Assembly: GCF_963921235.1 (NCBI RefSeq) | Contig: NC_086097.1 | Span: 123,010,001 to 123,074,000 of the forward strand | Direction of reading: 5' to 3' | Length of the DNA stretch: 64,000 nucleotides | Origin: Mobula hypostoma | Lineage: Eukaryota | Part shown: one piece after another, positions 11,783 through 62,399 of the stretch | Layout: each line of letters begins with the position of its first letter | Position numbering within the stretch: position 1 is the stretch's first letter | The notes under the pieces: model-generated | Databases searched by the model: none | Told to the model about the DNA's origin: nothing | Seen by the model: only the letters and a program-made list of their open reading frames with translations | Position numbers and translations under genes: made by a program

Positions 11783-11939
11783 GAGGGACTTCTGGTAGCG
11801 CTCATGGAGTGAAGTCGCGTTCTTGACTCGCTCCATTACCTCTGAGTTTTTTTTCTCTATGGTCAGCTATACTTTAATTAACCATTAAGGCATCAATTCT
11901 TACAATACTTTGAATTAAACTGAATTCTCCGACAACTGG

Positions 11940-12839: not shown

Positions 12840-13560
12840 TTGCTTTTTTTTAATTATCTCCGTTGATCGGAGGCTGTGAATTGGTTGGTTTTAACTTTTT
12901 CGTGCCCTATTTGGGCAGAAAAGTTTACTTTTGATTTCTTAATATGGTTGCTAAACTTTCTTTTTAACTGCGTCATTTCTTTCTTTCCCCAGGGGATTCT
13001 GGGTGGTTACTTCCCTTTTGTCATCTTATGTATTTCCTGTGTGGCCTTAAATTTTGTAGTTTTTTTAAAATTTTATTCTGTTTTGCTTTTTATAACCACT
13101 TTATGTCAATAATCTTATTGTTTCTTGTTGCTGTGTCTATTCATGGGTTTGAGGTTTATTGTGGTTTTTTTTTAATATATATTTTCCGGCTTTTGTTCTG
13201 TTCTGTGTGTATTTTAATTGAGCTACCTTTTTTTTTTACTTTTTTACTGTTTTATAATTAGCTGATCCTTTTTCATATTTATACCTTTTTTTTTAGGGAG
13301 CGTATACCGGAAGTCACGGGGGTAGTTTTAGCGCTTGCTTCTTTCTGGCGGGTCTGCTTTAGATTTTGCCTTGGGGTCTTGGGGTGGGAGGTGGTGGGAG
13401 GGGCTTCACGTTTTAGTTTGTTTCTCTTTGGGCTATATACATTATTGAAGTACTGGTTGCGTCCTTTTTCCCGGTATCTTTTGTATGTTCTGTTTCCTCT
13501 CCGGGTTTGTGGGTCGCGCCTATCGTCAATCCTCCTTGTTGTGGGTTGACTTTAGGATTT

Positions 13561-16500
13561 ATGGAGTCTATTATTAATTTTGTCTCCTGGAATACTAATG
13601 GTCTTAATCATCCTATTAAAAGGAAAAAAGTTTTTAAAGTGCTCCGGAGACTTAAAACACAAATTTTATTTTTACAAGAGACCCATGTACGGAGGGGGGA
13701 CAGACTACGTTTTTTCAAATTCTGGAAGGGACAACAATTTCATTCGAACTCCAATGCTAAGATTCGAGGCGTCTCTATTTTTATAGATTCCTCAGTTACT
13801 TTTATACAACAGGATATTATTTCTGATCCGAATGGTAGATTTTTATTGGTTAGTGGTTTACTATTTAATAAAAAAGTAGTTTTGGTTAATGTTTATGCTC
13901 CTAATATGGATTGTCCGGAATTTTATAAATCATTGTTCGATCAGTTTCCGAATTTGAACGAGTTTTCATTGATCTGGGGCGGAGATCTTAATACCTGTTT
14001 GTCTCCAGCTTTGGACCGTTCGGCTCCTTTACGGACTTTACCTAATAAATCTGCAAATTTGATTAATTTTTTCCTTTCTGATTCTGGGTCGACGGACATT
14101 TGGCGTTTTCTGCATCCTCAGGAAAAAGATTTTTCCTTCTTTTCACATGTTCATTATTCCTATTCAAGAATTGATTATTTTTTCATTGATTCTCGTCTTA
14201 TTCCTTCAGTGATTAAATGTGATTATGATTCTATAACCATTTCGGATCATGCTCCACTTAAGCTCTCTATTAAAATTATGGCCAATATACCGAATAATAG
14301 ACAATGGCGTTTTAATTCGCTGTTGCTTCAGGACTCGGACTTTGTTAATTTTATGAATGAACAGATTGAGCTTTTTTTTACAATTAACCATACAGAAGAT
14401 ATTTCGGTTAACACTCTTTGGGACACTTTTAAAGCCTATATTCGGGGTCAGATTATTTCGTATTCTGTTGCTCTGAGGAAGAAACAGAAGCAGGAGGAGA
14501 TGGTAATTGTGGACAAGATTAAAGAAATTGATAAGAAATATGTTATGGCTCCTTCTGAGGAGTTATATAAACAAAGAACTGAACTTCAAATGGAACACAG
14601 TTTACTACTCTCGTCCTCGATTGTAAACCAATTAAAGAAAACAAGAAGTGACTTTTATGTTCACAGTGACAAAATTGGCAAGCTGCTGGCTAATCAATTG
14701 AAATCTAATTATGTTAAATCTCAAATCAATCAGATTTATAACCAAAATGATCGATTGATACTGGATCATGTGGGGATTAATCAAACCTTTTGTGATTTTT
14801 ATTCTTCTTTATATCAATCAGAGTCTCCTCGAGATTCTAAATATATGAATGATTTTTTAGATAAGTTAGACTTCCCTCAGATTTCACAGGATATGTCTTC
14901 CTTATTAGATACTTCCATTACAATGGATGAGATTAAGAATGTTATTTTTTCTATGAATCTGGGGAAAGCTCCTGGCCCTGATGGGTTTACCGTTGAATTT
15001 TATAAATGTTTTGCTTCTTTATTGATTCCTTGGCTCGGTAGGGTTTTTGAGGCTTCTTTGAAACTTGGTAAACTTCCTGAATCTTTTAATAGAGCATCAA
15101 TTTCTCTAATACTAAAGAAGGATAAAGACCCTGCTCAATGTGCATCTTATAGACCAATATCTTTATTAAATGTTGATTCTAAAGTTTTTTCTAAGTTATT
15201 AGCAAATAGACTAGAAAAAGTACTTCCTTCTATTATTTCGGAGGACCAAACGGGTTTTATTAAAGGTCGTTACTCTTTTTATAATATTCGTACATTGTTA
15301 AATATCGTTTATACTCCCTCACAAAATGTTCCTGAGTGTGTTATTTCTTTAGATGCCGAGAAAGCTTTTGATAGAGTAGAATGGCCTTATTTATTTAAGG
15401 TGCTTGAAATGTTTAATTTTAGCTTGAGATTTATATCCTGGATTAAACTGTTATATCACTCCCCTGTAGCCTCGGTTCGTACTAACTCTTTAAACTCACC
15501 TTTTTTTCCTCTTTTTCGTGGTACTCGACAAGGCTGTCCTCTTAGTCCCCTATTATTTGATATTGCATTAGAACCTCTTGCAATTGCTATTCGAGAATCT
15601 TCAAATATTACTGGGATAACTCAGGGATTAAAGTCCCATAAATTATCACTCTATGCTGATGATTTACTTTTATATATTTCTAATCCTGAAAGATCCATTC
15701 CTGCTGTTTTAGAGTTATTAGCACAATTTGGTCTTTTCTCAGGTTATAAATTAAATCTTAGTAAGAGTGAACTTTTTCCGATTAATAAACATCTTCCCTT
15801 ATATTATAAATTTCCATTTAAATTGATTAATAATTACTTTTCATATCTTGGGATTAAAATTACTTGTAAATACAAAGATTTATTTAAGACTAACTTTTTA
15901 CCATTAATAGACCATATTACTCAACTTTCATCTAAATGGTTTCCTTTATATTTAACTTTGATTGGTCGTATTAATGCGGTTAAGATGTTTTTTTTGCCAA
16001 AATTTTTATATGTGTTTCAGGCATTACCAATTTTCGTTCCAAAATCTTTTTTTGATAAAGTTGACTCTAAAATTTCTTCATTTATTTGGCAGAATAAGAA
16101 TCCGAGACTGGGTAAAATACATTTACAGAAAGCTAAGAGAGATGGAGGTTTAGCATTACCTAACTTCAGATTCTATTATTGGGCTATTAATATTCGACAT
16201 ATGAAATTTTGGTTACTTGACCAGGACATACTATCTATTCCTAAATGGGTAGCATTGGAATTACAATCGGTTCAGGGTTATACACTTGGTTCTATTTTAG
16301 GCTCCTCTCTCCCTTTTGATTCGAAACGTCTTAAGCAGGTCTCTAACCCGATAGTTAAATATGCTTTGCGCATTTGGTTTCAATTCAGAAAATTTTTTGA
16401 TCTTAATCAATTCAGGTTAGCGACTCCTATTTTAGGTAACATATTTTTTCCTCCCTCTTTTACGGATCGCGCTTTTCAAACTTGGAAGACTAAGGGTATT

Positions 16501-17337
16501 TTACGGTTTTTGGATTTATTTTTAGATGGTTCCCTTATGTCTTTTGAACAATTATCTAATAAATATAACTTATCAAGAATACATTTTTTTAGATATTTAC
16601 AAGTTAGAAATGTCCTAAGTACTATACTTTCTTCCTTTCCAATGCTTCCTCCTACATATATTTTAGATTCGATAATTAACCTTAATCCATGTCAGAAAGG
16701 TGCATCGGCTATGATTTATAATATTATTATGAAACTTAGGAAAGCTCCATTTGATAAGATTAGGGTAGATTGGGAACAGGAATTGGGGCTTACCATTTCT
16801 GTGGATGACTGGGGGCAGATTTTACAATTAGTTAATACTTCCTCTATTTGTGCTAAACATTCCCTAATTCAATTTAAAGTGGTTCATAGAGCACATATGT
16901 CCAAAGATAAGTTAGCGCGTTTTTACTCGCATATTAATCCTTTCTGTGATAGATGTTCGGGGCAGATAGCCTCTTTAACTCATATGTTTTGGTCTTGCCC
17001 TGCTTTGGAAACTTTTTGGAGAGATATTTTCAATATTATTTCTAAGGTATTAAATATAGATATCTCTCCTCACCCTATTACTGCTATCTTTGGACTATCT
17101 AAAATTTCTAGTAATCTTTCCCCTTCAGCCCGTTGAATGATTGCATTTCTTACTTTAATGGCGAAAAGATGTATTTTACAACATTGGAAAGAGCTTAATG
17201 CTCCAACTACCTTTTTTTGGTTTTCTCAGACGATTTTATGTTTGAATTTGGAGAAAATTAGAAGTAACCTTTATGATTCTTCATTTAAATTTGAACAGAT
17301 TTGGGGACCTTTTATTCGATATTTTCATTTGATGTAA
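13561..17337 (+). CDS. L1 ORF2p (APE endonuclease, reverse transcriptase, CCHC knuckle), one in-frame TGA at 17134-17136
   Basis: Endonuclease motifs SWNTNGL, LQETH, GDLN, SRIDY, SDH. RT motifs KAPGPDG, YRPISL, LDAEKAFD, GTRQGCPLSP, YADD, YLGI. Knuckle CDRC-x8-HMFWSC. The frame continues to 17337 after the stop. Confidence 0.96.
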
Positions 17338-21914: not shown

Positions 21915-22113
21915 AAACACAAGATATTCTGAAAAAATAGGAAATCCAGACTAACACACAGAAAATGCTGGAGGAACTTAGCAGACCAGGGAGTATCTAT
22001 GGAAAGGAATAAAGAGCAGGAGTTTCATGCTGAGACTGGACTCAGTACTGATGAAGGGTCTTGGCCCAAAACGTCAGCTCTTTATTCCTCTCCATCTCTG
22101 CCGCCTGACCTGC
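21915..22113. mobile_element. Penelope-derived inverted-repeat element with degenerate hammerhead motif
   Basis: Left arm AAAATGCTGGAGGAACTTAGCAG..ATCTATGGAAAGGAATAAA. Right arm CAGTA-CTGATGA-AGGGTCTTGGCCC-AAAAC-GTC-AGCTC-TTTATTCC. Confidence 0.65.
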
Positions 22114-23149
22114 AGAGCTGTAATTTTACTTCTGTTGTGATTTTTAACCTACGAAGTAATACCAAACCCATCAGGGAAGTTTACAGAACTGTATTTCCTG
22201 GGTAGATATAAGCAATTATTTCTTGCTGAATTTGTAAAGTCTGTATTTAAAGATCTTAATTTGCTGCACCATTACTGTCCTTTCATTGCTTTTATTTCTC
22301 TTGGGATGAAGCTCCAATGCTTTGTGGGTTATTTTAAAAAGGTAAATAATTGGTTTTGGAGCAATGCCAACAATGTCTTCAGATGACTACTATTAACATG
22401 GCAATATGGAAAATATAGCCATGAGCTCCATCAAAAGACCAGAAGAAAATAGAAGCAGGAGTCAGCACTTGGCCTCCTAAGGCAGCCTTACCATTCAATG
22501 TGATCACAGCTGATCTGCCACAGGCCTTTTTATTCTGCTCGGTGTCAGATCTCCATAGCATTTTATTCCCTAATCTTTCAAAAATTCATCAATTTCCTCT
22601 TTAAATAACCCCACTGAAAGTGCTCCACCACGTCTGGAGTAGGAAATGGATCATCCCGTTTGCAGCAAGTCATTAGAATTTCTGCAGATCTATTCCAGAG
22701 CTAGACCTCAGAACATACGTGGTAAACATATTCAGCATTTTCAATTTCTACAGGTTACAGTTTTCCCTTGCTCAGTTAGAAGTACGTACAGCTCCTGCAT
22801 AAGGTTGAGCTTTTGGAGACCATCGGGAAGGATTTGTCAGGGCCACTGTCACCTGGCCACATTTCCCACTGGCAAACAGTTTGGCCTCGGAACCGGACAC
22901 GGTAGCCTAACGGCTGGTGCAATGCTTTTACAGTGCCACCAACCCAGGTCTATTCCCCACTGCTGTCTGAAATAAATTTGTACATTCTCCCCGTGAGCAG
23001 ATGGGATTCCTCTGGGTGCCGACGGGTTGTGCGCCATCTGTGGGGGGGGTGGGGGGGGCGAGGATTTATCCACATTTCAGACCGAAACCCTGCATGCATC
23101 CTCGGCATTTTCATTTCAGCCGGATCTGTCCTGAGACCAGCAGGTAAGT

Positions 23150-24434: not shown

Positions 24435-24720
24435 TATATAGGCATCCGTTAGACTCGTGAGACCATGGATTTGCGTCTTGGAAGGTTTCCAGGGTGCAGG
24501 CCTGGGCAAGGTTGTATGCAAGTCTCCCCTCTCCACGCCACCAATGTTGTCCAAGGGAAGGGCACTAGGGCCGATACAGCTTGGCACCGACGTCATCACA
24601 GAGCAATGTATGGTTAAGTGCCTTGCTCAAGGACACAACACGCTGCCTCAGCTGAGGCTCGAACTAGCGACATTCAGATCACTAGACTGACGCCTTAACC
24701 ACTTGGCCACACAGCAACAC
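24435..24720 (-). mobile_element. tRNA-derived SINE (second family), copy 1
   Basis: Minus strand has A-box TGGCCAAGTGG, B-box AGTTCGAGCC and core TGTGTCCTTGAGCAAGGCACTTAACC. Near-identical to 42297-42619. Confidence 0.8.
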
Positions 24721-27031: not shown

Positions 27032-27571
27032 CACTTTATTTGGTACCTAATAAAGTGGCCACGGGGTGTACGTTCATGGTCTTCTGCTGCTGTAGCCCAT
27101 CCACTTCAAAGTTCAATGTGTTGTGTATTCGTAGATGCTCTTCTACACAACACTGCTGTAAGCGTGTGGTTACGTAAGCTACTGTTGCCTCTTGTCAACT
27201 TGAACCAGTCTGGCCATTGTCCTCTAATCTCTTTCACTAACAATGCATCTTCACCCTCAGAACTGCCGCTCACGAGATGCTTTTAGTTTTTCACACCATT
27301 CTCTGTAAACTCTAGAGACTGCTGTGTCTGAAAATCCCAGGAGATCAATAGTTTCCTGAGATACTCAAACTACCCCATCTGGCACCAACAACCAGTCCAC
27401 AGTCAACTTAGATTTGTTTCCCATTCTGATGTTTGGTCTGAATAACAATTGAACCTCTTGACCATGTCTGTATGCCTTTATGCATTGAGTTACTGCCATA
27501 TGATTGGCTGAGTACATATTCGCATTAACAAGCAGGTGTATAGGTGTAACTAGTAAACTGCTAACTGAGCG
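27032..27571 (-). mobile_element. Tc1-derived MITE family copy (left end truncated)
   Basis: Shares the TIR CACTCAGTGGCCACTTTATTAGGTAC and internal sequence with the copies at 29551, 44281, 49056 and 51437. Confidence 0.8.
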
Positions 27572-28194
27572 TAGTATAACACAAATGTCCTTCTCTCAAA
27601 ACTGTTTAACAGTCAGGACCAAAACAGTATAAGGTTCTGCTCCTCTCTGGTAATTGTACTATGATTCTCATCTCTTATCAGTTCAGTTCCAGTGGCATGA
27701 AAAGAAAAAGATTAATGAAATGGTTTGTGTATTTGTGTTAATTGTTGATGTCTTTTAGAGAGAAACACAGATGCGGGGGGTGGAATAATGCGGTATAGTC
27801 AAAATATGTTATTGAACAATTTCGGATTTTACTGCACAAGCTTACGCTGATAACATTTATTTTGGTGTTTTACCAATTTGGTTTAAACATAAGAGGCGGT
27901 ATATAACTTGGTAGAAAATCCTTGACATAACATTATCAGAATAGTGCAAGTGATGGCAGCCTGTTACCGAGCTGCAGCTCTAAAAATAAAATTCATTATG
28001 ATACAGTGCATTGATTATATTTTCATATATTCCATAGGATTACTGTTAAGAATAACGATGATATCATGTATTCCATTAAATTACCATGATCTGTGTATTA
28101 TACAACAGGATTATATTTTCTCTAGCAAGCAAGGCTTCTGTGTCTTGTTTTATAGCGTCAGAGGAAATGAGAGTGGCTGACGCGGCATTCAAAC

Positions 28195-28339
28195 CTAATG
28201 GGATGCCTGTGCTGAAGACTGCCAAGGAGGCAGCTGCTGTCAGCAACAGAGCTGAGGGAAAATACGTCCACAAAGGGAGTTGTGCTATGTAAAGCCGCAG
28301 CAGCAAAGACCAAGTGGTGCGAAAACATTGCAAGTATCC
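28195..28339 (-). CDS. putative internal exon of the minus-strand gene (3' boundary ambiguous: 28195 or 28085)
   Basis: Acceptor ttttgtcctttcatacag|GG. The phase-1 frame GILAMFSHHLVFAAAALHSTTPFVDVFSLSSVADSSCLLGSLQHRHPI ends at AG|gtttga and joins the terminal exon in phase 2. An alternative phase-0 frame is open to ATG|gtaatt at 28085. Confidence 0.5.
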
Positions 28340-29550: not shown

Positions 29551-30085
29551 TACTCAGTAGCTACTTTACACCTGCTCATTAAAGCAAATATTTAATCAGT
29601 CAATCATGTGGCAGCAACTCAATGCATAAAAGCATGCACACTGGGTCAAGAGGTTCACTTGTAGTTCAGACCAAACATCAGAATGGAGAAGGAATGTGAT
29701 CTAAATGACTTTGTTTGTGGAAAGTTTGTTGGCGCCAGAGATGGTGGTTTGAGTCTCTCAGAAACTGCACATCTCCAGTCTCTACAGTTTACGGAGAATG
29801 GTACGAAAAATACAAAAAAATCCAATGAGTAGCAGTTCAGTGGGCGGAAATGCCTTGTTGATGAGAGAGGTCAGAAGAGAATGGCCAGACTGGTTCAAGC
29901 TGACAGGAAGGTGACAGTAACTCAAATAACCTCACATTACAACAGTGGTGTGCAGAAGAGCATCTTTGAATGCAGACACATCAAACCTTGAAGTGGATGG
30001 GCTGCAGCAGCAGAAGACCACAAACATACACTCGATGGCCTCTTTTTTCGGAAGAGGAGGTACCAAATAAAGTAACCACTGAGTG
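29551..30085 (+). mobile_element. Tc1-derived MITE family copy
   Basis: TA|TACTCAGTAGCTACTTTA ... TAAAGTAACCACTGAGTG|TA; decayed transposase N-terminus inside. Confidence 0.85.
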
Positions 30086-30279
30086 TATATTACCACAACA
30101 AAAGAAAGAGAGAATAAGCAACACTTTATTCGAAGTCTGAGCACCAGAGAAAATATAGGACAAGAAAGCCACTGTTCCCACCATGTTCTACTTTAAAGTT
30201 TAATTGAAAATTGTCCAGGATTAAATTATAATTTAAGATATTATTCCATATGGTGGGTGTTTTAGAGACCATAGTCATA

Positions 30280-31499: not shown

Positions 31500-33080
31500 A
31501 GAGATAGGATGTACCTTTTACTGTTGCTCTGGAAAGCAGTCTTATTACCCTACCCTTCTCCTTATTCTGTACATGCTCCCCTTAGGAGTCATCATTAGAG
31601 AGCATAAACTTGATTTCCACAGTTGAACAGATGACACACAATTGTAAATCCCGGTTGAGCCTGATGATGATAACACCCTATCTTCTCTGATTCTTGGTAT
31701 GGCTGCAATAATCAAAATGGATGAGCAATAATTTCATCAAACTAAATGAAGATAAGACTGAAATCTTTTTGATTGGCCTGAAAGCCAAAAGAGATAAAAC
31801 TGGAAACTTGACTCCCTTTGTAAAACCAGAAGTAACAAACCTGGTTTTATTATCCTTGATTCAGATTTGAATTTCAAATCCCACATTAAAAAAGTGACCA
31901 GAGTGGCATTTTTACACATAAGAAATATTATAAATGTATGTCCATTTCTGTCACATAATGATGCTGAAAAACTAATTTACGCCTTTATATCGAATAGACT
32001 AGATTACTGGTATGTACTCTTTACAGGCCTTCCACAGCAATCTACTGACACTGACAAACTTCAACCTATTCAGTACACCGCTGCTGGACTTTTAACTAAA
32101 ACCAGAATGAGGGAGCATATCACCCCTGCCTAGCTACTCTGTGTCTTTTAGAATTGATCTTGCTTGTTTTTAAAGCTCTCAATGGTCTGGGACCAGAGTA
32201 TATCACAGAACTGCTTTCATTCTATAATCCTGCTCGAGCTCTCAGATCTTCTTCTGCCGGTCTCTTAAATTCCAACAATTTCCCTATAAAGGTAATTGGC
32301 TGGTCAGCTTTTTTGAACTACGCTCCGAAACTATGGGAGTTGAATACCTACGAGGGGTGATTGATAAGTTTGTGGCCTGTGGAGGGAGTCGATTATAGAA
32401 AACCTAGCACATCTATTTTTCAACATAGTCCCCTCTTACATTTATACACTTACTCCAGTGGTTGTGGAGCATACGGATCTTGGATCTCCAGAAAGTGTCC
32501 ACAGCAGGCGTGATTGATAAGTTTGTGGCCTAAGGTAGAAGGAGATGAGTTATACAGCTCTCTTTACATGCACATGCAGTTCAACTCCTTGAGTGATTAT
32601 GCAGAAAGTTTGAAGTTAATAACTCATCAGGGGTGATTGATAAGTTTGTGGCCTAAGGTAGAAGGAGATGAGTTATACAGCTCTCTTTACATGCACATGC
32701 AGTTCAACTCTTTCAGTGATTATGCAGAAAGTTTGAAATTAATAACTCATCAGGGGTGATTGATAAGTGTGTGGCTTAAGGTAGAAGGAGATGAGTTATT
32801 AACTTCAAACTTTCGGTATAATCACTCAAAGAGTTGAACTGCATGTGCATGTAAAGAAAGCTGTATAACTGTATAACTACCTTATTCCACAAACTTATCA
32901 ATCACCCCTCGTAAAACTGTAAGGGATGCAGATTCAGTTGACACTTTTAAACAGCAGCTCAAAACCTGTTTGTTTACCTCACATCTTTTTGTCTTATAGT
33001 TTCATGTTTACACTTTATCCCTCTGTAATGAACTTTGATCTACATCGCCTGTATGAAAATAACAAGTTGTTATTATTACT
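31500..33080 (+). mobile_element. L2-clade LINE 3' fragment, interrupted by a mariner MITE
   Basis: DDTQL, LNEDKTEI, NFKSHIKKVTRVAFLHIRNI, AEKLIYAFISNRLDY, ILLVFKALNGLGPEYI and YAPKLW motifs; (TTA)n tail. Confidence 0.85.
32351..32911. mobile_element. mariner-type MITE with internal 123-bp tandem units
   Basis: TA|CGAGGGGTGATTGATAAGTTTGTGG ... CCACAAACTTATCAATCACCCCTCG|TA; repeat units start at 32505, 32628 and 32751. Confidence 0.9.
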
Positions 33081-34442
33081 GTCTTAACAAGCAGCAACAC
33101 AGATCAACCTAATCCTGTATCCGAGAGCTGTCACAAAGTATCTGTGCTTTATCAGACTGTGTGTCTTCTGTAGCTGAGCACCCTGACGAGCAAAGCAGAG
33201 GCTACAAAGTGAGCAGGGATACCTGCTGACCACGTGGCTCTTCATTCTGGCAGGCAGCCGCGCACTCAAACGCAACAAGTGTACAGCCAATGCCTTGCTC
33301 CCAAGCACGATGTCACAGTGTGTGGACACCTCACAAATATATTAGGACATTCGGACAGTATGGAACAAGGACCACCACCCCCTCCCCCGCACATGCTGGA
33401 GGATATGTGCAATATTTGGCTGTGCGCATCACATCAATGGTGGCCTGTTGTGTGAGGCCCTTCCTTTATGGGGGAAAGGCAGTTTCAATTATGCGGGGGA
33501 GCAACTACAGAATGTGGAGAGAAAGGGAAGGAAGAGGAAAGGGAGAGGCCATGTGGCAACCCAACATCGAATGAGTTCATAACCATCTTAAGTGCAGAGG
33601 ATAATTCTACTCAGTAGTGGCAACCTTGCATCTGAGTTAAAGACTGTGGATTCAAGTGGTACTTCAGATTTAACAGTTTACATTAATAATTGTGTGCAGT
33701 ACCAGGGGAAATCCTGCACGGTTCTGTTGCTAATACAAAATGTTGAATTGTAGACTCATCTGCTGGGGATGAAAAGACTGCAAGACATTAGAGTCCCGAT
33801 GAAGGATTTTGGCCCGAAATGTCTACTGTTGATTACCCTCCATGACTTGCTGAGTTTATCCAGCATTTGTGTAAGTGTTGCTCAAGATTTCCAGCATCTG
33901 CAAAATCTCTTGCTTGCTAGACATAATCTGACTAATTTCCTGACCAACATTTATCCTTTGACCAAAGGCAATAAAGCAGCTTTGGCGAGGAATACTTCAA
34001 CGCATTTAAGAAAATTCTGGTTTAAGATGGCACTGGTGAATCTCAACAACTTCTGGCTGGTGGCCGATGAAACAAAGAAAACAACTAAATACTTTGTTAA
34101 TCACTATTTTTCTGGTAAACTTCCCTTTGGATTTGAAGGCAATTCATTGCAGCAGAACCGAGGTAAGACGAGGCAGCAGGCCTGTTGCCAAGAGCAAGGA
34201 AGAACCCAGGTTCGATCGATTCCTGTCAGTTAAGCTTCATAGACTAATGTTTTGACTTCGTATAAAGATATGGAGCCACTTGCCCAACTTAGGAATGTTT
34301 GTTTTGGTAACGTGTTGTAACTTTTTTCCCCGATGGGATGCAATGGAAGATTCGAGAGGGCTGGGCGGGATCAGATTTCTGAAGGACAGTAGCCTGGTTT
34401 GGAGCCTTTTGTGATGAGCTGCAGAGAAGAGCACAAGGGGAA

Positions 34443-35818: not shown

Positions 35819-36666
35819 GGGAGATGCTCGAAGAAAGAGTGCTTTGTGCAGGTGAATGAAAACTTTGCATGGGGCAGTATTTACACAGCATTCACCACAA
35901 TTTTCATTCCCTCATCAGAACATCCAACTTTTCAGTTTAGTTGAAACCAAATCATACTGACCCTAGACACCTGTTGCCTATTGAAAGTGGCCTTCTGAAG
36001 GCTGAGTCACATGGCTTTTAGCAGAGTTAGATAACAAGCCACGTTTGTTACAAGCCATGGTGAGAGGGATACACAATATTGTACCGTGTACCAACCCAGG
36101 TTTCTAGGTGGCAAGTAAAGGCCTCGTGCATACAAAAAAAATGAAAGGCCTTGCCTCTGATTTCAGATGCATCTGTGCCGGATAGACATCATGGAAGAAT
36201 CAACCAACAGAACAAATTGACAGTGGGGAGAGATGATCAATATGGGAAAACCAGAGCTCATGAAGGAATGATCCTGACAGGGAGAGAAATTGGAGCACGT
36301 AAATAGAAGGAGGAATGGACGAAGCAAGTGGGGAGATAATCTGAAGAATGGGCAAGGAGTTGACTGTAAGTTGCAGAAAGCAGTTGGTGGGGAAACCAAG
36401 GAAAGCAACTGACTGGGGAGATGTTTGAAGGAATCGATTGCGAATGCATCAAGGAAACGTTGGAGAGGGGCCAAGGTGAAATACAGCAATATTTCACCTT
36501 CAACAAAAAGGCAGTTATCTTATTAGTGTTCTGTGCCTCTAGAAATATAACAACAAGGTTGATCCTCCCATATTGTAAGTCTCAAATTTATAATACTGGA
36601 GGTGTGCTGAACTTATGATGTGTTTTTAGGTGGCAGTTTCAATATCACACTTGTTTGTAAATGCCT

Positions 36667-36704
36667 GAGTCCTGATGAAGGGCTATGGCCTGAAACGTTG
36701 ACTC
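36667..36704 (+). ncRNA. minimal type-I hammerhead ribozyme motif (Penelope-type)
   Basis: GAGTC-CTGATGA-AGGGCTATGGCCT-GAAAC-GTT-GACTC: stem I GAGTC/GACTC, intact CUGAUGA and GAAA cores, stem II AGG/CCT, palindromic ACGU in place of stem III, NUH triplet GUU. Confidence 0.7.
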
Positions 36705-36819
36705 TTTATTCCTCTCCATAGATGCTGCCTGACATGCTGAGTTCCTCTAGGACTTTGTGTGTGTCACTCTGGATTTCCACTATCTGGTGAGTCTCTTGTG
36801 TTACAGATGCAAAACTTAC

Positions 36820-37028
36820 CTTTTTGCAATTCTTCAAATAGCGATGGTGCGGAACATAAAACAGCACAGAAGTATTGATCTTGACAGCCAGACTGTCCAG
36901 TGCAAACCCAACCCAAATGCAGATGGGAGGAGAAGAACAAGACTCTGTGTTTGAAATGATCAATGATTGTGTTAATTACTGTTTTCTGTTTCCATCTTAC
37001 CGTGCTAAAAAGGTACATTTTCAGTAGC
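36820..37028 (-). CDS. putative internal exon of the minus-strand gene
   Basis: Acceptor tgtgttctcttcag|G and donor AAG|gtaagt. 209 nt open from phase 2 to phase 1: LLKMYLFSTVRWKQKTVINTIIDHFKHRVLFFSSHLHLGWVCTGQSGCQDQYFCAVLCSAPSLFEELQK. Confidence 0.6.
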
Positions 37029-38200: not shown

Positions 38201-38684
38201 CTGCCTTGTCATTCTGCTGTCATTGCACTGAGTGTACGCACTTCAATAGATATATTTTTATAATGGGTTCGCTTTAGACTGCCTTCCTGCCATACACTTC
38301 TGAATATTCCATTTCTTTAGTAATGGGGTTGTGTAAATATGTATATATTGTTTGTATACTGTAGCTGTATACTGTGGGGTTCTAATTTATGTGTAGTCTT
38401 TAGTTAACTGTGGGTAATTAAAGGTAGTTCGTTCTGATGTCTAAAAACACAGGGCAGTTCGCTCTCGGTGGGGGGAGAGGAGAGGATAGATATGCCGGGA
38501 TTTCACACTGGGCATTCTATGGAGATATTTATTGTGTTTTCAGGTAGATAACTTTTTGCAAACATTAGCAGTTTTCTTTTCACTAATTTTTGCAAGTTTG
38601 ATTTTTGATGCCCCCGTGCTTGAAAGTTCTACGTGACTCCAGCCATCATTTTTCTTTGGGTCATAACCCACGTACTATAACAGT

Positions 38685-38946
38685 AACACACCCAAAATGC
38701 TGGAGAAACTCTTCAGGTCAGTTAGCATCTACGGAGAGGAACAGACAGTCGACATTTCAGGCCAAGAGCCTTATCAGGACTATATGATCACCAGTTCATT
38801 AGAATTGATGAGTCATGATAAAGGTTCTCAGCCTGAAACGTCAACTGGTTATTCCTTTCCATTGATGCTGCCTGACCTGCTGAGTTCCTCCAGCATTTTG
38901 TGTGTGTTGCTCTGGATTTCTAGCCTCTGCTGACTTTCTCGTGTCT
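38685..38946. mobile_element. Penelope-derived palindromic element with two opposed degenerate hammerhead motifs
   Basis: Arm 38685-38781 is the reverse complement of about 38810-38908. Each arm carries a decayed CTGATGA..GAAAC-GTC motif. Confidence 0.7.
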
Positions 38947-39980: not shown

Positions 39981-41319
39981 CTACAAAAGCAGTGCAAGGT
40001 TCAAGTTTATTTCCCTGATATTTTTCACTCTCAGGCATGCTGTTAGGAAAGGGCACAGAGGTGAACATTTTCATTAAAACCAATGAGGAAAGAGCAGTTA
40101 TTGTTTACTTGGAGTCACAGAGTTATAGAACACCAGAGCACAGAAACAGGCCCTTGGCCCATCTTATCCATGTCGAACTAGTATTCCACCTAGGTTCATC
40201 GACCTACACTTGGATCATAGCCCTCCACACACCACCCATCCATGTACCTATATAAACTTATTTTCAAGAGTGAAATTGAACTCATATCTACCATTTCCGC
40301 TGACAGCTGGTTCCAGACTCTCACCACCCTTTGAATGAAGAAGTTGCCCCTCACGTTTCCCCTTAAACAATAGCATCAATCCACTGAGATGCTCTGGCTC
40401 TACATTTCTAGTTGACAGACAGGAGATGGAAAAACTACAGCTGTATGTTTTTGGTCCCCACCCCCCCCCCCCGCCCATATGGGGGTAAGAGGAACCCACC
40501 ATAATAGGGCAGATCTTCTACTGTCCCAGAATCACTGCCCTCCTTCTTCTGGGCCACAGTGCTTGCTCCAGCACTGTATTCTAGAGAGAGTACGGTTTTC
40601 AATACTTTGGGATGGTAATGTGCGTCCAAGGAAAGACTGTCAACACAAACAGCTGGTCCCACTCATAGAAAGGCCTCGCAGGAGGCTTTATTACCCCCCA
40701 GGCTCAACAGATGTCGAAGCTTGAACGTTGTGTACATCTTTGACATTCACAAATGTTTAGTAACTCCTAGGACTGTTTCAACTAAAATGACAGTAAACTA
40801 TTAAAAATATTAAATGTATAGGAATATTCAATATTTTTAACAAATAAAACACCATAAAATCCATATAATACAAAGAAACTAAAAACATTTGAAGTGGCAT
40901 CTATGGAGCGGAATAAACTGCTGACATTTTGGACTGAGTGCCTTCATCAGGTCGACCATTTATTCCCTTCCATTGATGCTGTCCGACCTGCTGATTGCTT
41001 TCAGTATTTTGTGTTTGGATTTCCCGCATCTGCAGAATCTCTTCTCTTCATTATTTAGGTGCCAGAGACCTGAGCTCAGTCCTGACATGTGTGGTGTTTG
41101 CACGTTCTCCCTGTTTGATGCAGGAATCCAGTAGGTTGCTGCTAATGAGGAGATGAGTGGCAGAATCTGAGGAAGGTTTAAGATGATGTGGGGTGTATAA
41201 AAACAGTAATTAATACAGAATGTATATATGAATGAGCTGCCAGAGGAAGTGATTGAAGCAAATACAATAATAAAGTTTAATAGACAGTCTGGTGGGTACA
41301 TGGAGAGAAAAGGTTTAGG

Positions 41320-42296: not shown

Positions 42297-42619
42297 ATAT
42301 ATAAAAAAATAGGCATCCGTTAGTCTCGTGAGACCATGGATTTGCACCTTGGAAGGTTTCCAGGATGCAGGCCTGGGCAAGGTTGTATGGAAGACCGGCA
42401 GTTGCCCGTGCTGCAAGTCTCCCCTCTCCATGCCACCAATGTTGTCCAAGGGAATGGCATTAGGACCCATACAGCTTGGCACCGGTGTCATCGCAGAGCA
42501 ATGTGTGGTTAGGTGTCTTGCTCAAGGACACAACACGCTACCTCAGCTGAGGCTTGAACTAGTGACCTTCAAATCACTAGACCGATGCCTTAACCACTTG
42601 GCCACGTGCCAACACCAGT
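42297..42619 (-). mobile_element. tRNA-derived SINE (second family), copy 2
   Basis: A/B boxes as in copy 1. Probable TSD TATCTCGCTATA (42285-42296) / TATCTCTCTATA (42620-42631). Confidence 0.8.
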
Positions 42620-44100: not shown

Positions 44101-44280
44101 CTTCAGTGGCAGCCATGGTAGATCTGCAGAAATTTCATTCTATAAACTGACTTGATCACACCAACAGCCACTGTCTGGCTCATGAAGAGCAAAGTGACCA
44201 AGAGGTGGATAGGCTTTATACTGCATACCTCGAGACCAGGATGTATTTCCTTTAACCTTAGTCAATGCATTCCCTTTTCA

Positions 44281-44839
44281 CACTCAGTAGCCACATTACT
44301 AGGTACTGCCTTTACTTAATACAGTGGCCACTGAGTGTATGTTCATGGTCTTCTGCTGCTGTGGCCCAGCCACTTCAAGGTACGACGTGTTGTGCATTCA
44401 GAGGTGCTCTTCTGCACACCACTGTTGTATCAGCTGGTTATTGAAACTACTGTTGCCTTCCTGACAGCTTGGACCAGTCTGGCCATTTTCCTCTGACATC
44501 TCTCATTAACAAGGCATTTTTCTCCACAGAACTGCTGCTCACTGGATTTTTTTTTTTGATTTTCACACCATCCTGTGTAAACTCTAGAGACTGTTGTGCG
44601 TGAAAATCCCAGGAGATCAGCAATTTCTCAGATACTCAAACCACCCTGTCTGGCACCAACAATCATTCCACTGTCAAATCATTTCACTTAGATCACATTT
44701 CTTCCCCATTCTGATGTTTGGTCTGAACAACAAATGAATCTCTTGACCATGTATTAAGTTGCTGCCACATGATTGGCTGATTAGATATTTGCATTAATAA
44801 GCAGGTAAAAGGTGTACATAATAAAGTGACAACTGAGTG
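44281..44839 (-). mobile_element. Tc1-derived MITE family copy
   Basis: CACTCAGTAGCCAC ... ATAAAGTGACAACTGAGTG termini, with an extra inverted TIR ending at about 44337. Confidence 0.85.
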
Positions 44840-45979: not shown

Positions 45980-46410
45980 CCCATCCACCACCACCCCCCT
46001 CCATCTGGCAGAACTGATCCTCACCTTCTCTGGGCCCCTCCTGCTTTCTCCAAACCCAAGGTGCAGCCATGGGCACCTGCATGGGCCCCAGCTATGCCTG
46101 TCTTTTCATTGGAAAGTCCATGTTCCAAGCCTAGACTAATAAAGCTCCCCTACTCTTTACACGCTACACTGACACTACATTGGTGCAGCTTCCTGAACCC
46201 ACTCCAAATTCGTCAATTTCACCAAATTTGCTTGTAACTCGCTTTCCGTGCCTCACTTATGAACTTCTGCCCCTCCTCTTCTACCCACCTTCGCGTTCTA
46301 ACCTCTTCCGCCTGATGAAGGGTCTTGGTCCGAAACATCAACTGTTTATTCCCCTCCGTGGATGCTGCCTGACTTGGTGAGTTCCTCCAGCACTTTCTGT
46401 TCCTTGTTAT
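45980..46410 (+). mobile_element. Penelope-like element remnant: RT fragment joined to a hammerhead-bearing terminal repeat
   Basis: From 46045 the frame reads FLQTQGAAMGTCMGPSYACLFIG (PLE RT motif), then LFTRYTD (decayed RYIDD). CTGATGA-AGGGTCTTGGTCC-GAAAC-ATC lies at 46312-46339. Confidence 0.75.
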
Positions 46411-47190: not shown

Positions 47191-48047
47191 GTGACATTGT
47201 TCCAGGCGTGAAGATTTTGTTTCATTTGGTATCCAGAGCATGGTGCAACTTTCTGCTTTATCGTTACTTCTAAACCTTTATCATAATTGGCAGAGGGAAG
47301 TAATTTAATTTGCATTAGTCAGCTTCTCTCCTGCGGATGAGACGACTGCATCTAAATGGTACCTTTGACATCCAAGTAGCAGAATCGATGGCACTCAAAC
47401 TTAAATGAAGTGACACGGCAGTAATGAAATCTGCTATAACGCTCACAGCTTTGTGCTCAACATAAGGCACATAATTACCGCATGTTTTGCAGAATTGAAC
47501 TGAACGTTTGTATTGTTACCTTTGAAGTTTTGAGGTTAACCTTTAGAATCAGCTTGACCTGAGCACAACAAACCTGCAAAGGGATGGATCGCTGTGACAA
47601 GTTCGGCATTTTTCAAGAGTGGGGGAAAATCCTTGGAAATAAAAAAGATTCCACATTTGAATGCACCCACTTTCTACCTGCGGCAGACTGTGTTGCAATG
47701 TGTCTTGGCTGATGTTACTGAACACAGCAAACAGCTCTGTTTTCATCAAGTCACACATTGTGAGCACAAAAATGACAAGGCTTCAGGTTAAAATGATCAA
47801 ATTCCTTTGCTAATAAAAACTACGCATTGCTGATTATGTAAACAGATGGAGCTGAACTGTTCAGGACTTATGAATTTGTTTTGCTTATTTTGCAAATGAA
47901 TTTGTATCACTCAGGCAGAGGGACCATTGTACTTGCCCACTGACTGACACTGTTGAAAACATACATACATAAAAGCTTATGCACTCACTGCAAACTCGGT
48001 ACAATTTACATCATTATTGGTTTTTCCAAGTGAGGCAAGAATAAATA

Positions 48048-48885: not shown

Positions 48886-49055
48886 CAGATTTGTAATGCC
48901 AAAAAATCCTCCCAAACAACAGCAGACTATTATTCTATTTTAAAAATTATGTATCTATGTCCCAAAATGTTCTGTAAAGTGTTTAATTAATATTTATATT
49001 ATTCTTGTCACATCTCAATTCTCTACAAAACTAAGCATATATAAAACCAGATATA

Positions 49056-49618
49056 CACCCACTGGCCACTTCATTAGGTACCTCTTGTACCTAATAAAGT
49101 GGCCACTGAGTTTACGTTTGTGGTCTTCTGCCACTACGGCCCATCAAGGTCGATGTGCTGTTTGTTCAGAGATGCTCTTCTACACACCACTGTTGTAATG
49201 TGTAGTTATCTGAGTTACTGTCACCTTCCTGTTAGCTTGACCCAGTCTGTCCATTCTCCTCTGACCTCTCTCACTAACAAGGCACTTTCACCCACAGAAT
49301 TGCCACCTACTGGGTGTTTTTTTCACCCTTGCACCATTCTCTGCAAACTGTAGAAACTGTTGTGCCTGAAAATCCCAGGAGATCAGCAGTTTCTGAGATA
49401 CTCAAAACAGCCTGTCTGGAATCAACAATCACTCCACAGTCAAAGTCACTTAGTTTATATTTCTTTCCCATTCTGATGTTTGGTCTGAGCAACAACTGGA
49501 CCTCTCGGCCATGGCTGCATGCTTCCATGCATTGAGTTGCTGCCACATGATTGGCTGATTAGATATTTGTATTAATGAGCAGGGGTACAAGTAGACCTAA
49601 TAAAGTAGCCACTGAGTG
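49056..49618 (-). mobile_element. Tc1-derived MITE family copy
   Basis: TA-flanked TIRs. The minus strand encodes MGKKYKLSDFDCGVIVDSRQAVLSISETADLLGFSGTTVSTVCREW, a Tc1 N-terminal HTH. Confidence 0.9.
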
Positions 49619-50046
49619 TATGTATTCATGTCCCTGCCAGCTCATATTAAGAATTCGTTCAATTTGGCTTAAAGGATTTAACTTTCCTTATGTACTCTTG
49701 CCCCCATCTATTATCGCAATCAATGTACAGCTAACTCTAAATTAACAATAATTTAAAAAACGAAAATGCTGGAAAGAGAAACAGTTAACATTTTAGATCA
49801 AAGATCTTTCACCAGAAATGCAGATTTCAATTCCAATTTCCAGCACTTGCAGTTTTATTGATTTATTTACTAGTAAATTAATTAGCACATTTTGCAATTT
49901 AAACTTCTTGGGATTCTGTATGCAAGCAGCAAATGTACTTAACAAGGAAAAAAGGTAAATTCGCAATAACTTTTTCCATTTGGCAAGATGACCCAATTGA
50001 TCCAAATGAAGTGCCCATTGAAGGAGTTGGAGAAGGAAAAGATTAC

Positions 50047-51436: not shown

Positions 51437-52196
51437 CTGTCAGTAGCCACTTTATTAGGTACCTCCTGTATGATTATGGTCTTCTGCTACTGTAGCTCAT
51501 CCACTTCAAGGTTCAAAATGTTGTGTGTTCAGGGGTGCTCTCTGCACATCACTGCTGTAACATGTGGTTAGCGGAGTTACTGACGCCTTCATTTCATCTT
51601 GAAAGAGTCTGGCTGTTTTCCTCTGACCTCTCTCATTATCGAGGCATTTTTATACTTTATACTTTATTGTCACCAAACAATTGATACCAGAGTGTACAAT
51701 CATCACAGCGATATTTGATTCTGCACTTCGCGCTCCCTGGAGTACAAATCGATAGTAAATAGTAAAAATTTAAATTATAAATCATAAATAGAAAATAGAA
51801 AAGGGGAAGTAAGGTAGTGCAAAAAAACCGAGAGACAGGTCCGGATATTTGGAGGATATGGCCCAGATCTGTGCTCAGAACTGCCAATAACTGGATTTTT
51901 TTTTGATTTTTGCATTATTCTCTGTAGACTCTAGAGACTGTTGTGCAAGAAAATCCCAGGAGACCAGCAGTTTCTGAGATACTCAGATCACCCCATCTGT
52001 CACTGACAATCATCCCATATTTAGTCACTGGATCACATCTGTTTCCCATTCTGAAGTTTGGTCTGAACAACAACTGAACCTCTTGACCATGTTTGCATGC
52101 TTTTATGCATTGAGTAGCTGCCACATAACTGACTGATTAGATATTTGCATTAATGAGAAAGTGTACAGGTGTACCCAATAAGGTGGTCACTTAGTG
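51437..52196 (-). mobile_element. Tc1-derived MITE family copy with a nested LINE 3' tail (about 51651-51869)
   Basis: TA-flanked TIRs. The insert ends in ATAAAGTATAAAGTATA on the minus strand. Confidence 0.8.
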
Positions 52197-52384
52197 TACT
52201 TCAAGATAGGAAAACAATCAAGATTTGAGTATTATTAAAATTAAAAGAGATGGAAAGATTGATTAATTTCCATGAGCAAATTAGTCAGTGTTAACTATTT
52301 GAGAAATAAGTCTGTTTTACCAATACTTTCCAGCCATGTGTTCACATTCAGTAATCTTCTCTGTGGCTGAGATTGGAAAGAGAT

Positions 52385-54769: not shown

Positions 54770-55060
54770 TATAATTATTATTTATTGAGATATAGCGCAG
54801 AAAGGGCCCTTCTGGCACTTCGAGCCACACTGCCCGATAGTTTCCCAATTTACTCCTAGCCTAATCACAGGACAATTTACAATGACTGATTAACCCAACA
54901 ACCAGTACGTCTTTGGACTGTGGGAGGAAACCGCAGCATCCAGAGAAAACCCACATGGTCACAGAGAGAACGTAGAAACTCCTTACAGGCAGTGGCAGGA
55001 ATTGAACCTGGGTTGTCTGTATGGTTAAGCTTTGTGCTAACCACTACACTACTGCGCCAC
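54770..55060 (-). mobile_element. V-SINE-like tRNA SINE with CR1-like tail
   Basis: Minus strand has GGCGCAGTAGTGTAGTGGTTAG, GGTTCAATTCC, the V-domain core and an (AATA)n tail. Confidence 0.7.
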
Positions 55061-55549: not shown

Positions 55550-56418
55550 TGTGTACATACATCTATTGGTACTTCTGGACACATCTTCAGTGATGTTCCT
55601 GGAATCATCGGGTGTTTCGGGTCTTTCAACATCATACAACCTCCTCCAGGTGACCCAGCCGGGGCTGATCAGACCCCAGCTTGTGTCCAGATGGCTAGCT
55701 ACTTATGACTCCATGTCTCCCCTCTTTTGAGCCACAGCCATCTTGAGACCCTCTCTGCCGCATCGGTGGTACTGCGGATGGCTCTCCTCTTCCTCTCTCC
55801 CTCGATGCCCAAAATGCTGAAGGCTCTAACTAAAGAACAGGCTACGAATCCCCTACAACCGACCTCCACTGGGAGACACCTCGCTCTCCATCCAGCCTGC
55901 TGACAGTTGCTGACCAGTCCTGCGTACTTGGAGAGCTTCCTTTCAAAGGCCTCCTCCAAGCTATCTTCCCATGGGACTGTCAGCTAAAGCAGCACCACTT
56001 GCTTAGACACTAGGACAATGTCTGGTCGCAGGATGGTGGCTGCGATATGGTTGGGGAACTTCAGCTGCCCTTTGAGGTCCACCAACAGTTGCCAGTCCCT
56101 TGCAGAGGTCAGAATGCCTGCAGATGTTCTTTTGGCAGGTATTGGCTGCTCCCCAGCTCTGACAAAGGCAATGGTCTGCTTGGAGGGTCGGGACCGCTTC
56201 GCCCACTCAACTCCAACACTGATAGCTTCAGCGATGGTCTTCAGGACCTGATCATGCCTCCACCTGTACCGTCCCTCACCAAGTGCCCTTGCACAGCCAC
56301 TGAGGATGTGCTCCAGGGTTCCTCGCTTGGAGCACAGTAGGCACGCAGATGATTCTGCCTTGCCCCATGTGTGCAGGTTTGATGGGCTTGGAAGCACATC
56401 GTACACTGCCTGGATGAG
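55550..56418 (-). mobile_element. 5'-truncated RLE-type non-LTR retrotransposon (HERO/NeSL-like)
   Basis: CLLC-x6-EHILSGC knuckle, YRWRHDQVL, RPDIVLVS..(E>stop)LTVPWE..ERKLSKY..PVEVGCRGF; short 3' UTR. Confidence 0.85.
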
Positions 56419-57666
56419 TGAATGTCAGGGTAACAAATAATGACATATACATACTTCGATATTAAATGTATTTTATTAGGTTAATAAATTAGGCTGTGTT
56501 AGTTGTTGATGCAGATGGCAGATTCCTCTGTATGTTTTAATGTATATTAATAAATAAATCTGAATCTAAATGCTATCTGATCTGAATACTATATCATCTG
56601 AATGCTAAGAGTAGAGTGTAGAACAGAAATGTTTGATTCTGGATTTTTAAATGATTACCGAATGAATAGTAATTACAGAATGAATGATCAGAAAATATCA
56701 ACTTCAAAAATATTAGGTTTCAACAGGTACATTTAATGTCAGAGAAATGTATACAATATACATCCTGAAATTCTTTTTCTTCACAAACATCCACGAAAAC
56801 AGAGGAGTGCCCCAAAGAATGAATGACATTTAAATGTTAGAACCCCAAAGCCCCCCAGCTCCCTCCTCCCACGCATAAGCAGCAGTAAGGCAATGACCCC
56901 CCCTCCTCCACCAGCAAAAAAACATCGGCGCTCTCCACTGAGCACTCAAGCATGCAGCAAAGCACCAATAAACACACAGACTTGCAGTACCCCAAAGACT
57001 ACCTGTTCACCTAGTATTTCACCACAGGCTCTCTCTCTCGCTAATAAGGGGAAAAGAGGTGTCCCCACTTCACCTGAGGAAGCTTAGGATAAATCTATTT
57101 CATGAGTGGTGAAAGCCCATTAGATTTTTCCACTGGGAAGAATGGAAGTAAGGCGACTTAATAGAGGTTTACAAGATGATACGAGGCATAGGTTGAATGG
57201 AGCCATAGACATTTTCCTGGGGCAGAAATGGCTAATACAAGGAGGGTATGATTTTAAGGTAATTGGAAGAAAGTACTGGGGGGGATGTCAGAGGTAAGTC
57301 TTCTTTACACAGAGAGTGGAATATGCTTGGAACAGTCTGCCGGGGGTGGTTGTTGAGGCAGGTTGATTAGGGACATTTAAGAAATGCATGGATGATAGAA
57401 AAATGGAACGCTACGTAGGAAGGAAGCATTAAATTGATCTTCGAGAATTTTTAACATTGCTGTGCTCTTGGTTACTTTCAAGCAGGTTTTCCTGCAAGGG
57501 GTGGAGAAATAATAGGCATGAACACAGTATACCTCAAAAAAATATTGTCTTTGGAGATGAGTATCTAATTACAAATCTTTTCATCTTTCCTACTTGCTAT
57601 ATTATGATTCTACCCCATTATGCTAATAGATTTTGATATATATTCAGAAGGAGCAGCAATGTATCC

Positions 57667-60423: not shown

Positions 60424-62399
60424 ATACATAAGTAAATATATTACCATTCCAGTGCAGGCACTATTTTGGGTATTAATGCAGGCTACTAGACCATAAGACA
60501 TAGGAGCAGAATTATGCCATTCGGCCCATTGTGTTTACTTCGCTATTCAATCGTGGCTAATTTATTTTCCCTCTCTGTTCTCCTGACTTGCATGTACTAA
60601 ATGACCAATATTATACAACAAAGAAATCGAATGGAGTACAGTGCACAACCATTCATATATGGAACATCTGAACGTCTGGCCAAAGCCGATCTGATTTATA
60701 CTGCACAACAGGCCATCCTGTTTAAAAATGGTTTCCATTTTTACAGCGATACAAATGTTAATTTTGTCCATAAACAGGGAAATACACAAAATCACTCAAT
60801 ATGATAACCGTATCTCCACAGGGTGTAATGAATAGTGTTGATGAGGGCCTAATACCATGATTTTTTTTGTCATACTCTACCTAGTTACCATAGTACAAAA
60901 TCAGGATGTTGAGCTTGAAATATCCATGCATGGTACATAGCTGAACAATCACTGCACAAGTATCAATGGAAGTGATTGTCAGTTTCCAATGCAACTCTCT
61001 TAAGTGGCCTCCTGTGGTGAAAATTGCAGCTTATGCACTTAAGGGACAATACTGCCTGAATACTACGGAGAGGTTACACAGAACAATAGCTTATTTTCAA
61101 GACTAGATTTTGTTTGAATTTAAAATTCCATTAAAATCTGTAAGCCAAATTTTCTGCATTTAATGGATTAACTACATACTATGGCAAAATAATTCAGATG
61201 GAAGTACAGGTCTGATTGAACCATGTGGTTTGAACTGTGAGGCAAGAACTATATTAGCTATGGCACTGTGCCAATAAATTTTCCTTTTACTATCTCATGT
61301 CTTTCCAACAAATGCACCAATAGCCAGCTGAATTGTACGTTGTTAAATAATATTCCATTTGAAATGCAAGTGTACAAGAATTCATAAAATCAATAAACTG
61401 AGCAGAAATTCACTGAATGAATTGCCAAACCACTGTTTTAGACGTAAAGTGCGGTCCATCAAAAGAGAATGTTTAATTCAAAACCACTGCAAAACAATGA
61501 ACACTCCTAATGTACAAGTGCTACAGGTGTGGTGTTCAAATCAGGGGACTCTGACCTTGTTGCAGTAAGTACCAATCTTACCTGCTCATCAAAAGCCGCT
61601 TCCCCACGCTAGCTAGGGATTGGCTTGTTTAAGGAACATTGCAGCCCTTCTACTGGCTGCTGCCTGGCGCCATGGCGCCTGCTGATGACATCATGGTGCC
61701 AACAGAGTATAAGTCTACCATGTTAAAAGCAGCTAGTCTTTTGCTTCAGGGGCTTGCCAATTGACAGGTTCGTGACCGATGCTACAGGAACTGTGGAAGT
61801 GTGCTGCCGTGAGAGATGGCCTGAATGCACACTTCAGATAAGTAACTGGGTGTTAACATGAAGAGTTTACTGAATATTTATGGTTTGTCTTTTCCTGTAA
61901 GTAGATAGTTAACTTACTTACCGGTACTGAGTATCTTCGGTCCCCACTCACCGAACCTGACTTTACAGGAAATTGAGATATTTCCTGCACAATGCTATTA
62001 GGGATGCCAAGAGACAATCCTAGTCCAAAGTCAAGGCCCGGAGCAGCCATAAATTGTGGCAGCATCTGTATTCCAGAATGGGCTACACAAAGAAGTTAGG
62101 CAGCATTGACGACAACAGTGCATCCCTTCCCGATGAGCTTAAAGCATTCTATGTATGGATAGAATGTACAGAAGAGAATTGGGATGTCACCAATCACAAA
62201 ACAAGGTGCTCTCGGTTGGTTTATTAATCCTTTTATTTCAGATCCCTCAGCAAGCAGTGACCCAATTACCACAAGCAGTTCATCATTCAAAATTTGCAGC
62301 GATTATCGAAAACGAGAGCAGTCAGCTCAATCTCTCCCGACAAAGGCACATTCTCACAGACAGCGGCAGCAATAATCAACACACACACACACACACACA

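Follow-up and report, generated by a model that had tools for sequence, protein, structure and literature searches.

A minimal hammerhead motif at the front of a Penelope-like element end fragment in the Mobula hypostoma genome

Minimal hammerhead ribozymes in the pLTRs of Penelope-like elements (PLEs) have already been published (Cervera and de la Pena 2014), and the motif at positions 36667-36704 of the window, the stretch of 64,000 nucleotides of the Mobula hypostoma genome that was analysed in this study, is of this known kind. Its family shares with the described motifs the type-I topology, a helix I of 4-5 bp, an extra nucleotide separating positions 9 and 10.1, which is a described minimal-hammerhead trait (PMC4209133), palindromic positions 15.2-16.2 without a helix III, the presence in both pLTRs and the occurrence mostly as dispersed single motifs or opposite-strand pairs. 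It differs in its helix II, which contains 4 bp compared to 7-8 bp in the motifs of Schistosoma, in the G.U (or slipped A-U) pair that takes the place of G10.1-C11.1 in the youngest subfamily, and in its abundance, with at least 42,429 exact cores compared to a motif count of about 9,000 in Xenopus tropicalis, although these counts were obtained by different search methods. In fish, the part of PMC4209133 considered here reports such motifs in Xena, Poseidon and Neptune elements.

Three further systems invite comparison, each as far as described in the portion of the source drawn on here. With the endonuclease-positive PLEs of the Neptune and Nematis type (Craig et al. 2021, PMC8557442) the family has in common a C-terminal GIY-YIG domain with CCHH, a CX2-5CxxC linker and DKG, and also partial tandems, inverted 5'-truncated copies and a tail of 30-40 bp. 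The Poseidon element PAc of Anolis carolinensis (Frangieh et al. 2024, PMC11167929) resembles it in having its tail delimited by two fixed 3' ends and in a hammerhead close to the ORF's start that is uncut in inserted copies, whereas PAc does not show the Zn linker as a clade trait and has an ORF that begins within the hammerhead, compared to a methionine located about 165 nt after C3 in our family. Non-LTR retrozymes, which were reported in one chondrichthyan, carry type-I hammerheads related to those of pLTRs (Li et al. 2026, bioRxiv 10.64898/2026.07.22.740005), yet they are tandem repeats, whereas the copies in the window are single or inverted and do not form the tandem units by which retrozymes are recognized.

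Against this background, we consider it very probable that the motif at 36667 is a hammerhead fronting a 135-nt PLE end fragment, that the lone copy here is a passenger that likely does not cleave, and that the element spreads by the mechanism proposed below. The copy itself would be ordinary debris, and it is the family, with the intact frames of a young PLE and ends that are near-identical in tens of thousands of copies, that provides a test bed for mapping the start of PLE RNA and the sites where copying starts and stops, and for in vivo cutting by minimal hammerheads. Among the papers listed by our literature searches, none is devoted to this PLE family in sharks or rays.

The motif at 36667 and related fragments in the window

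The preliminary description of this locus had proposed a hammerhead sequence, and both catalytic boxes, a 5-bp stem I, a stem II, the ACGU and an NUH triplet are indeed all found within the 38 nt at 36667-36704 on the plus strand, where the arms GAGTC and GACTC constitute stem I. The motif, its parts and the fragment that contains it are as follows:

36667-36704, plus strand: minimal type-I hammerhead motif (sequence, RNA fold)
36672-36679, plus strand: C3-A9 box CUGAUGA (36672-78) and an extra A preceding stem II (sequence)
36680-36691, plus strand: stem II of 4 bp (G.U, G-C, G-C, C-G) with a UAUG loop (RNA fold)
36692-36699, plus strand: GAAA box (36692-95), ACGU palindrome as empty stem III (36695-98) and GUU triplet (36697-99)
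36668-36802, plus strand: 135-nt 5'-truncated pLTR remnant of an old PLE subfamily (nhmmer 36666-36801, E 6.8e-43)

The copy displays the features by which minimal hammerheads are defined, with the boxes C3-A9 and G12-A15.1, the NUH triplet, a helix I of 4-5 bp together with helix II in the fold, and palindromic positions 15.1-16.1 without helix III (ACGT at 36695-36698). The cut site is predicted downstream of 36699, following a GUU triplet, compared to the GUC of the family majority (101 C and 69 T at H17, a CpG site, n=180). The extra nucleotide between A9 and 10.1 is present, 137 of the 146 copies sampled having an A there, and the register containing it is the more stable one: the open-core fold amounts to -10.6 kcal/mol with the 4-bp stem II and to -7.5 kcal/mol in the alternative 3-bp A-U register. 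This copy has G.U as its 10.1/11.1 pair, as do the youngest full-length copies (among 172 copies sampled, 82 carry C and 79 carry T). The 12 Rfam matches in the window do not include a hammerhead model.

The remnant begins with the first base of stem I and reaches the end of the tail, where similarity to its relatives ceases, and is surrounded by unique sequence. Its identity is 83-86% to three copies of the old subfamily and 72-75% to three younger ones (young or middle), and its motif differs from that of its subfamily at several positions. In a related organism, a contig with about 94% identity crosses the 5' junction and continues through the motif, which indicates that the insertion is old; the best candidate for a target duplication is a decayed 6-of-9 match. 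The position equivalent to 36667 is C or T in copies of the subfamily, and the G found here, judged from this comparison, is likely an insertion-junction base outside the element sequence. A cap-derived origin of this G was not supported, with the non-T base before stem I being G in about 27, A in 27 and C in 46 cases among 100 listed young-type copies (hand count).

An nhmmer profile built from 30 genome relatives detected 14 family fragments in the window, including all eight places named in the preliminary description, of which the seven beyond 36667 are each confirmed as family members. Their density of one fragment per 4.6 kb is typical for this 3.48-Gb genome. Apart from the remnant described above, nhmmer located the following fragments:

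10030-10694, minus strand: two decayed pLTR fragments (10030-10068 and 10643-10694), absent from the preliminary description
21917-22119, both strands: head-to-head pair of pLTR fragments, plus copy with G12>A
33790-33912, plus strand: pLTR fragment with U4>C and no ACGU
38682-38943, both strands: head-to-head pair with both cores broken (G8 missing in one; C3>A and G8>A in the other)
40892-41044, both strands: head-to-head pair, minus copy with G12>A
46311-46400, plus strand: pLTR fragment with intact boxes, ACGU and stem I broken
62400-62594, both strands: head-to-head pair, minus copy with intact boxes, ACGU and first stem I pair lost
63630-63743, minus strand: decayed pLTR fragment, also absent from the preliminary description

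Only the 36667 copy is complete among the 14, no copy on the minus strand is, and this is the number expected from the rate in a genome sample (17 of 202, about 8%). In the seven other copies named initially, five have a broken catalytic box and those at 46307 and 62473 keep their boxes and lose the ACGU and the stem I pairing. The very high genome-wide number that had been anticipated stands, as quantified below. The self-cleaving potential ascribed to the eight listed copies does not, seven of them being broken. Tandem arrays of the 135-nt unit were not seen in the window.

The parent element and its abundance

Longer sister copies extend upstream into a pyrimidine-rich 3' UTR that is preceded by a GIY-YIG C-terminus, and a search of the genome with this protein end yielded 138 scored matches, five of them in open frames of 1043 codons. 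In four of these elements (L113, L114, L116 and L117) the motif region is found at both ends at a distance of about 3.5 kb, with the upstream motif of L113 carrying G8>A, and the fifth retains no more than a partial pLTR upstream. The full-length layout consists of a pLTR with motif, a 1043-codon frame encoding RT, Zn-linker and GIY-YIG, and a second pLTR with motif, with a conserved methionine about 165 nt downstream of C3. The presence of the motif in both pLTRs of full-length relatives bears out its initial classification as a Penelope-type minimal type-I hammerhead with ACGU replacing stem III. What had been described as a dispersed ribozyme family, in contrast, consists of PLE end fragments and not of independent ribozyme genes.

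All five frames contain DKG, a CxxxxCxxC linker (CKRNKCYTC) and GVIY..CxxC..YIG. Their RT motif C reads YIDD in two cases and YIND in two others (L113 and L117), with no match in the remaining frame, and an open frame should therefore not be equated with an active copy. Pfam matches to RVT_1 (E 0.0023) and GIY-YIG (E 0.0011) both score below the curated cut-offs, and the nearest clusters in the Atlas are RVT/HTH_animal/GIY-YIG proteins at 0.98. The family has the single ORF with RT followed by GIY-YIG with CCHH that characterizes endonuclease-positive PLEs (the 36667 copy itself contains no ORF), together with partial-tandem pLTRs, inverted 5'-truncated copies and a tail, and the CX2-5CxxC between RT and EN that is typical for Neptune, a linker also common to Nematis, is found in five of five frames. 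Judged by the sequence traits listed in the part of PMC8557442 considered here, the family is an endonuclease-positive PLE with a Neptune/Nematis linker.

In a 1-Mb sample composed of 100 unselected 10-kb stretches of the genome we have identified 202 fragments, which corresponds to about 700,000 ± 130,000 genome-wide, compared to none found by nhmmer in the reversed 1-Mb control. An exact core pattern similarly gave 2,871 matches in the genome and none when reversed. Counts of exact patterns are equal on the two strands. The motif is spanned by 113 of the 202 fragments, with 35 keeping the core, 20 also both stems and 17 also the ACGT, the last number (17/202) providing an estimate of about 59,000 structurally complete motifs in the genome.

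Insertion ends, folding and decay

The 3' ends of the insertions in the 1-Mb sample are bimodal, at about +94 and +130 relative to C3, which we attribute to two internal RT start sites as they bound the PLE tail in the relevant part of PMC11167929. Head-to-head pairs, the standard PLE layout in the sections of PMC8557442 used here, account for 59 of 198 mapped fragments of this sample (4 of 202 are unmapped). The 5' ends are variable and form a continuum to full length with a pile-up at the start of stem I: of the 195 fragments whose 5' end is visible, 60 begin within -8 to +3 of C3, a count in which one row was entered twice and three fragments touching the end of a stretch were left out. Among the 42,429 exact young-type cores of the genome, the element sequence breaks off at -4 in 3,399 (8.0%), at -5 in 3,554 of 39,030 (9.1%) and at -6 in 1,109 of 35,476 (3.1%). 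These counts, which cover breakpoints at -4, -5 and -6 only, show that the first bases of stem I, and not the cut site (+28), are the preferred point for copies to end. Thirty inspected cases at -5 include 13 inverted junctions, at least five untruncated variants and seven solo insertions with a target duplication of 7-15 bp at a distance of at most 2 nt, and in four of these seven, short untemplated pieces with G are found at the junction.

We favour the view that the pile-up may mark the 5' end of the RNA, with a release of the polymerase at the hairpin as alternative cause. The context of the stem I start resembles YYANWYY, the consensus of initiators. A splice acceptor in stem I was discarded as source of the fixed 5' ends since it is not needed, the target duplication of the solo copies abutting the first base. 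Snap-back priming was similarly dismissed as cause of the inversions, with an exact fit in only 1 of 13 inverted junctions. In the copy that fits (L199), the turn of the inverted insertion falls exactly across stem I, as expected from snap-back of the new DNA strand, which is not the case in the 12 others.

The best fold of the 38-mer (-11.2 kcal/mol, z -2.5) is an off state in which G5-G8 are paired with the cut-site strand, and with 101 nt of context the motif is absent from the best fold. The open core lies 0.6 kcal/mol above the best fold in the 38-mer of the U7 copy at 36667 and 4.0 kcal/mol in a young pLTR. In the youngest subfamily (copy L117:4655-4691 and other young pLTRs) core position 7 is a C, which gives perfect pairing of GACG to the cut-site CGUC; the modelled off state of these C7 pLTRs, 4 kcal/mol under the open core, possibly acts as a tighter switch. 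The computed ACGU duplex is worth only -1.7 kcal/mol. Single minimal hammerheads showed no cleavage in vitro and dimers cleave at low level (PMC4209133), a dimer model that is also given in the part of the review PMC6765202 used here. The hammerhead of the anole PLE is described, in the passages of PMC11167929 considered, as protein-assisted and dispensable for insertion in vitro, with no RNA-seq ends reported at its cut site.

We propose that the PLE protein would prime reverse transcription internally, just 3' of the motif on uncut RNA, and that synthesis would run back to the RNA 5' end or halt earlier, so that the motif would be carried along in nearly every insertion. The ribozyme would be active only with two copies in one transcript, either as pLTR-ORF-pLTR or in tandem, which would pair via ACGU, probably with help of the PLE protein, and inserted copies would decay neutrally, with CpG sites being lost earliest. 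The retention of all core bases, both stems and the ACGU in the 36667 copy speaks against its description as a passenger, and in light of the intact core and the predicted gap of 0.6 kcal/mol it could cut if provided with a partner.

The decay of the family was compared with that of its flank. Conservation of the core above the flanking repeat, one half of the refutation test that the preliminary description had set for itself, is not found in old copies (n=145), where ten non-CpG core positions show 128 substitutions at 1,036 sites compared to 138.5 expected from base-matched flank (p=0.18). In young copies (n=38), 8 core substitutions at 308 sites compared to 15.6 expected (one-sided p=0.025) count against pure neutrality, although the events are few and the flank may contain subfamily differences. 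An unmatched comparison gives 0.894 for the core and 0.840 for the flank, values that mix subfamilies, gaps and base composition. At the CpG sites of the motif, the majority base is retained in 646 of 1,062 cells. Between subfamilies, identity amounts to 75-89% in the motif, 54-66% in the upstream 100 nt, 31-62% in the 16 nt directly 3' of the motif and 68-81% in the downstream 80 nt. At the sequence level, this pattern fits source elements under constraint and inserted copies that decay neutrally. The suggested covariation of the outer stem I pair did not hold up: a 5' G is combined with a 3' C in 5 of the first 100 listed of 2,442 matches (one being the 36667 copy), compared to 24 of the first 100 listed of 11,778 matches with a 5' C. 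Restricted to U7 copies among the listed matches, the numbers are 5 of 31 and 10 of 55 (all hand counts), and of the 12 copies starting with G in the unselected 1-Mb sample, one has the G-C pair.

It appears unlikely that the 135-nt unit is instead a self-standing non-autonomous element, SINE- or retrozyme-like, with a short RNA of its own and borrowed PLE proteins. The 60 of 195 fragments starting near C3 and the 7 of 30 inspected young copies that start there with a close target duplication would be expected from such a unit, and retrozymes were proposed as PLE derivatives in the portion of bioRxiv 10.64898/2026.07.22.740005 used here. However, the 5' ends are continuous out to full length, the short copies match the pLTR of autonomous subfamilies, the window shows no tandem arrays, and run-off from the RNA 5' end of the full element explains the short copies equally well.

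We regard it as very unlikely that dispersed complete motifs cut host transcripts, as dimers in cis or trans or with help of the PLE protein, and constitute a genome-wide layer of RNA cleavage. Such activity would be of importance for how genes are regulated in these genomes, and the large numbers of complete motifs and exact young-type cores, the intact 1043-codon frames and the family sequence in contigs of related organisms from runs guessed to be RNA (which may be DNA) would be compatible with it, but the evidence points to neutral decay of old copies. Moreover, with 1 of 14 fragments complete the 36667 copy has no complete partner in the window, the ACGU duplex is weak, published dimers cleave weakly (PMC4209133) and the anole cut site is without RNA-seq ends in the part of PMC11167929 considered. 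A related scenario, in which PLE RNA starts exactly at stem I, short insertions are full run-off copies and tens of thousands of complete hammerheads in host transcripts are activated in trans upon expression of the intact PLE protein, would amount to a retrotransposon-controlled RNA-cutting switch acting genome-wide and is highly improbable.

Search for a host gene and other features of the window

The candidate splice donor that had been noted about 115 nt from the motif is present on the minus strand at 36820 (AAG/GTAAGT, matching in nine of nine positions), but for the proposed location of the motif in an intron, antisense to a host gene, the candidate exons yielded no credible homolog and no support in RNA contigs. 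If the gene were antisense as proposed, the motif would be absent from its pre-mRNA. Four stretches on the minus strand that are open, non-repetitive and flanked by acceptor- and donor-like sites (28085-28339, 36820-37028, 47574-47717 and 61922-62082) are candidate exons of a minus-strand gene, as judged from these signals, and Pfam, homolog and Atlas searches with all four returned nothing credible. Contigs of seven runs guessed to be RNA, from other or unidentified organisms, contain no exon joints, which is no evidence either way. Catfish SUSD1 (E 1.2e-5) was rejected as a homolog, with tblastn giving no match within the 164 kb surrounding the motif and own-genome matches on other contigs. 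That the host has kept the 36667 copy to serve as a splicing element or regulatory ribozyme close to the donor is scarcely credible: it is the sole complete motif of 14 in an insertion whose 5' junction is bridged in a related organism and which is old, but one complete copy is expected from the sampled rate, the motif has drifted from its subfamily at several positions, it would lie on the untranscribed strand if the minus-strand donor is real, and no gene was confirmed in the searches with the four candidate exons.

Other repeats are found in the window. A family of about 550 bp (27033-27577, 29561-30090, 44280-44839, 49051-49625 and 51467-52198), with hairpin ends that score weakly for mir-9256 and far under the gathering threshold, likely represents MITEs or remnants of DNA transposons. 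SINE-like repeats with tRNA-like heads are located at 24438-24716, 42309-42605 and 54845-55058, a block of tandem and inverted short repeats with a period of about 123 nt at 32349-32909, and a C-terminal fragment of a non-LTR element with a weak zf-RVT match at 55984-56424 on the minus strand. An apparently intact LINE at 11919-17136 on the plus strand contains an ORF1-like frame of 221 codons and an ORF2 of 1239 codons with AP endonuclease, RT and zf-RVT, and is, from its domain content, likely a young element of the L1/Tx1 type.
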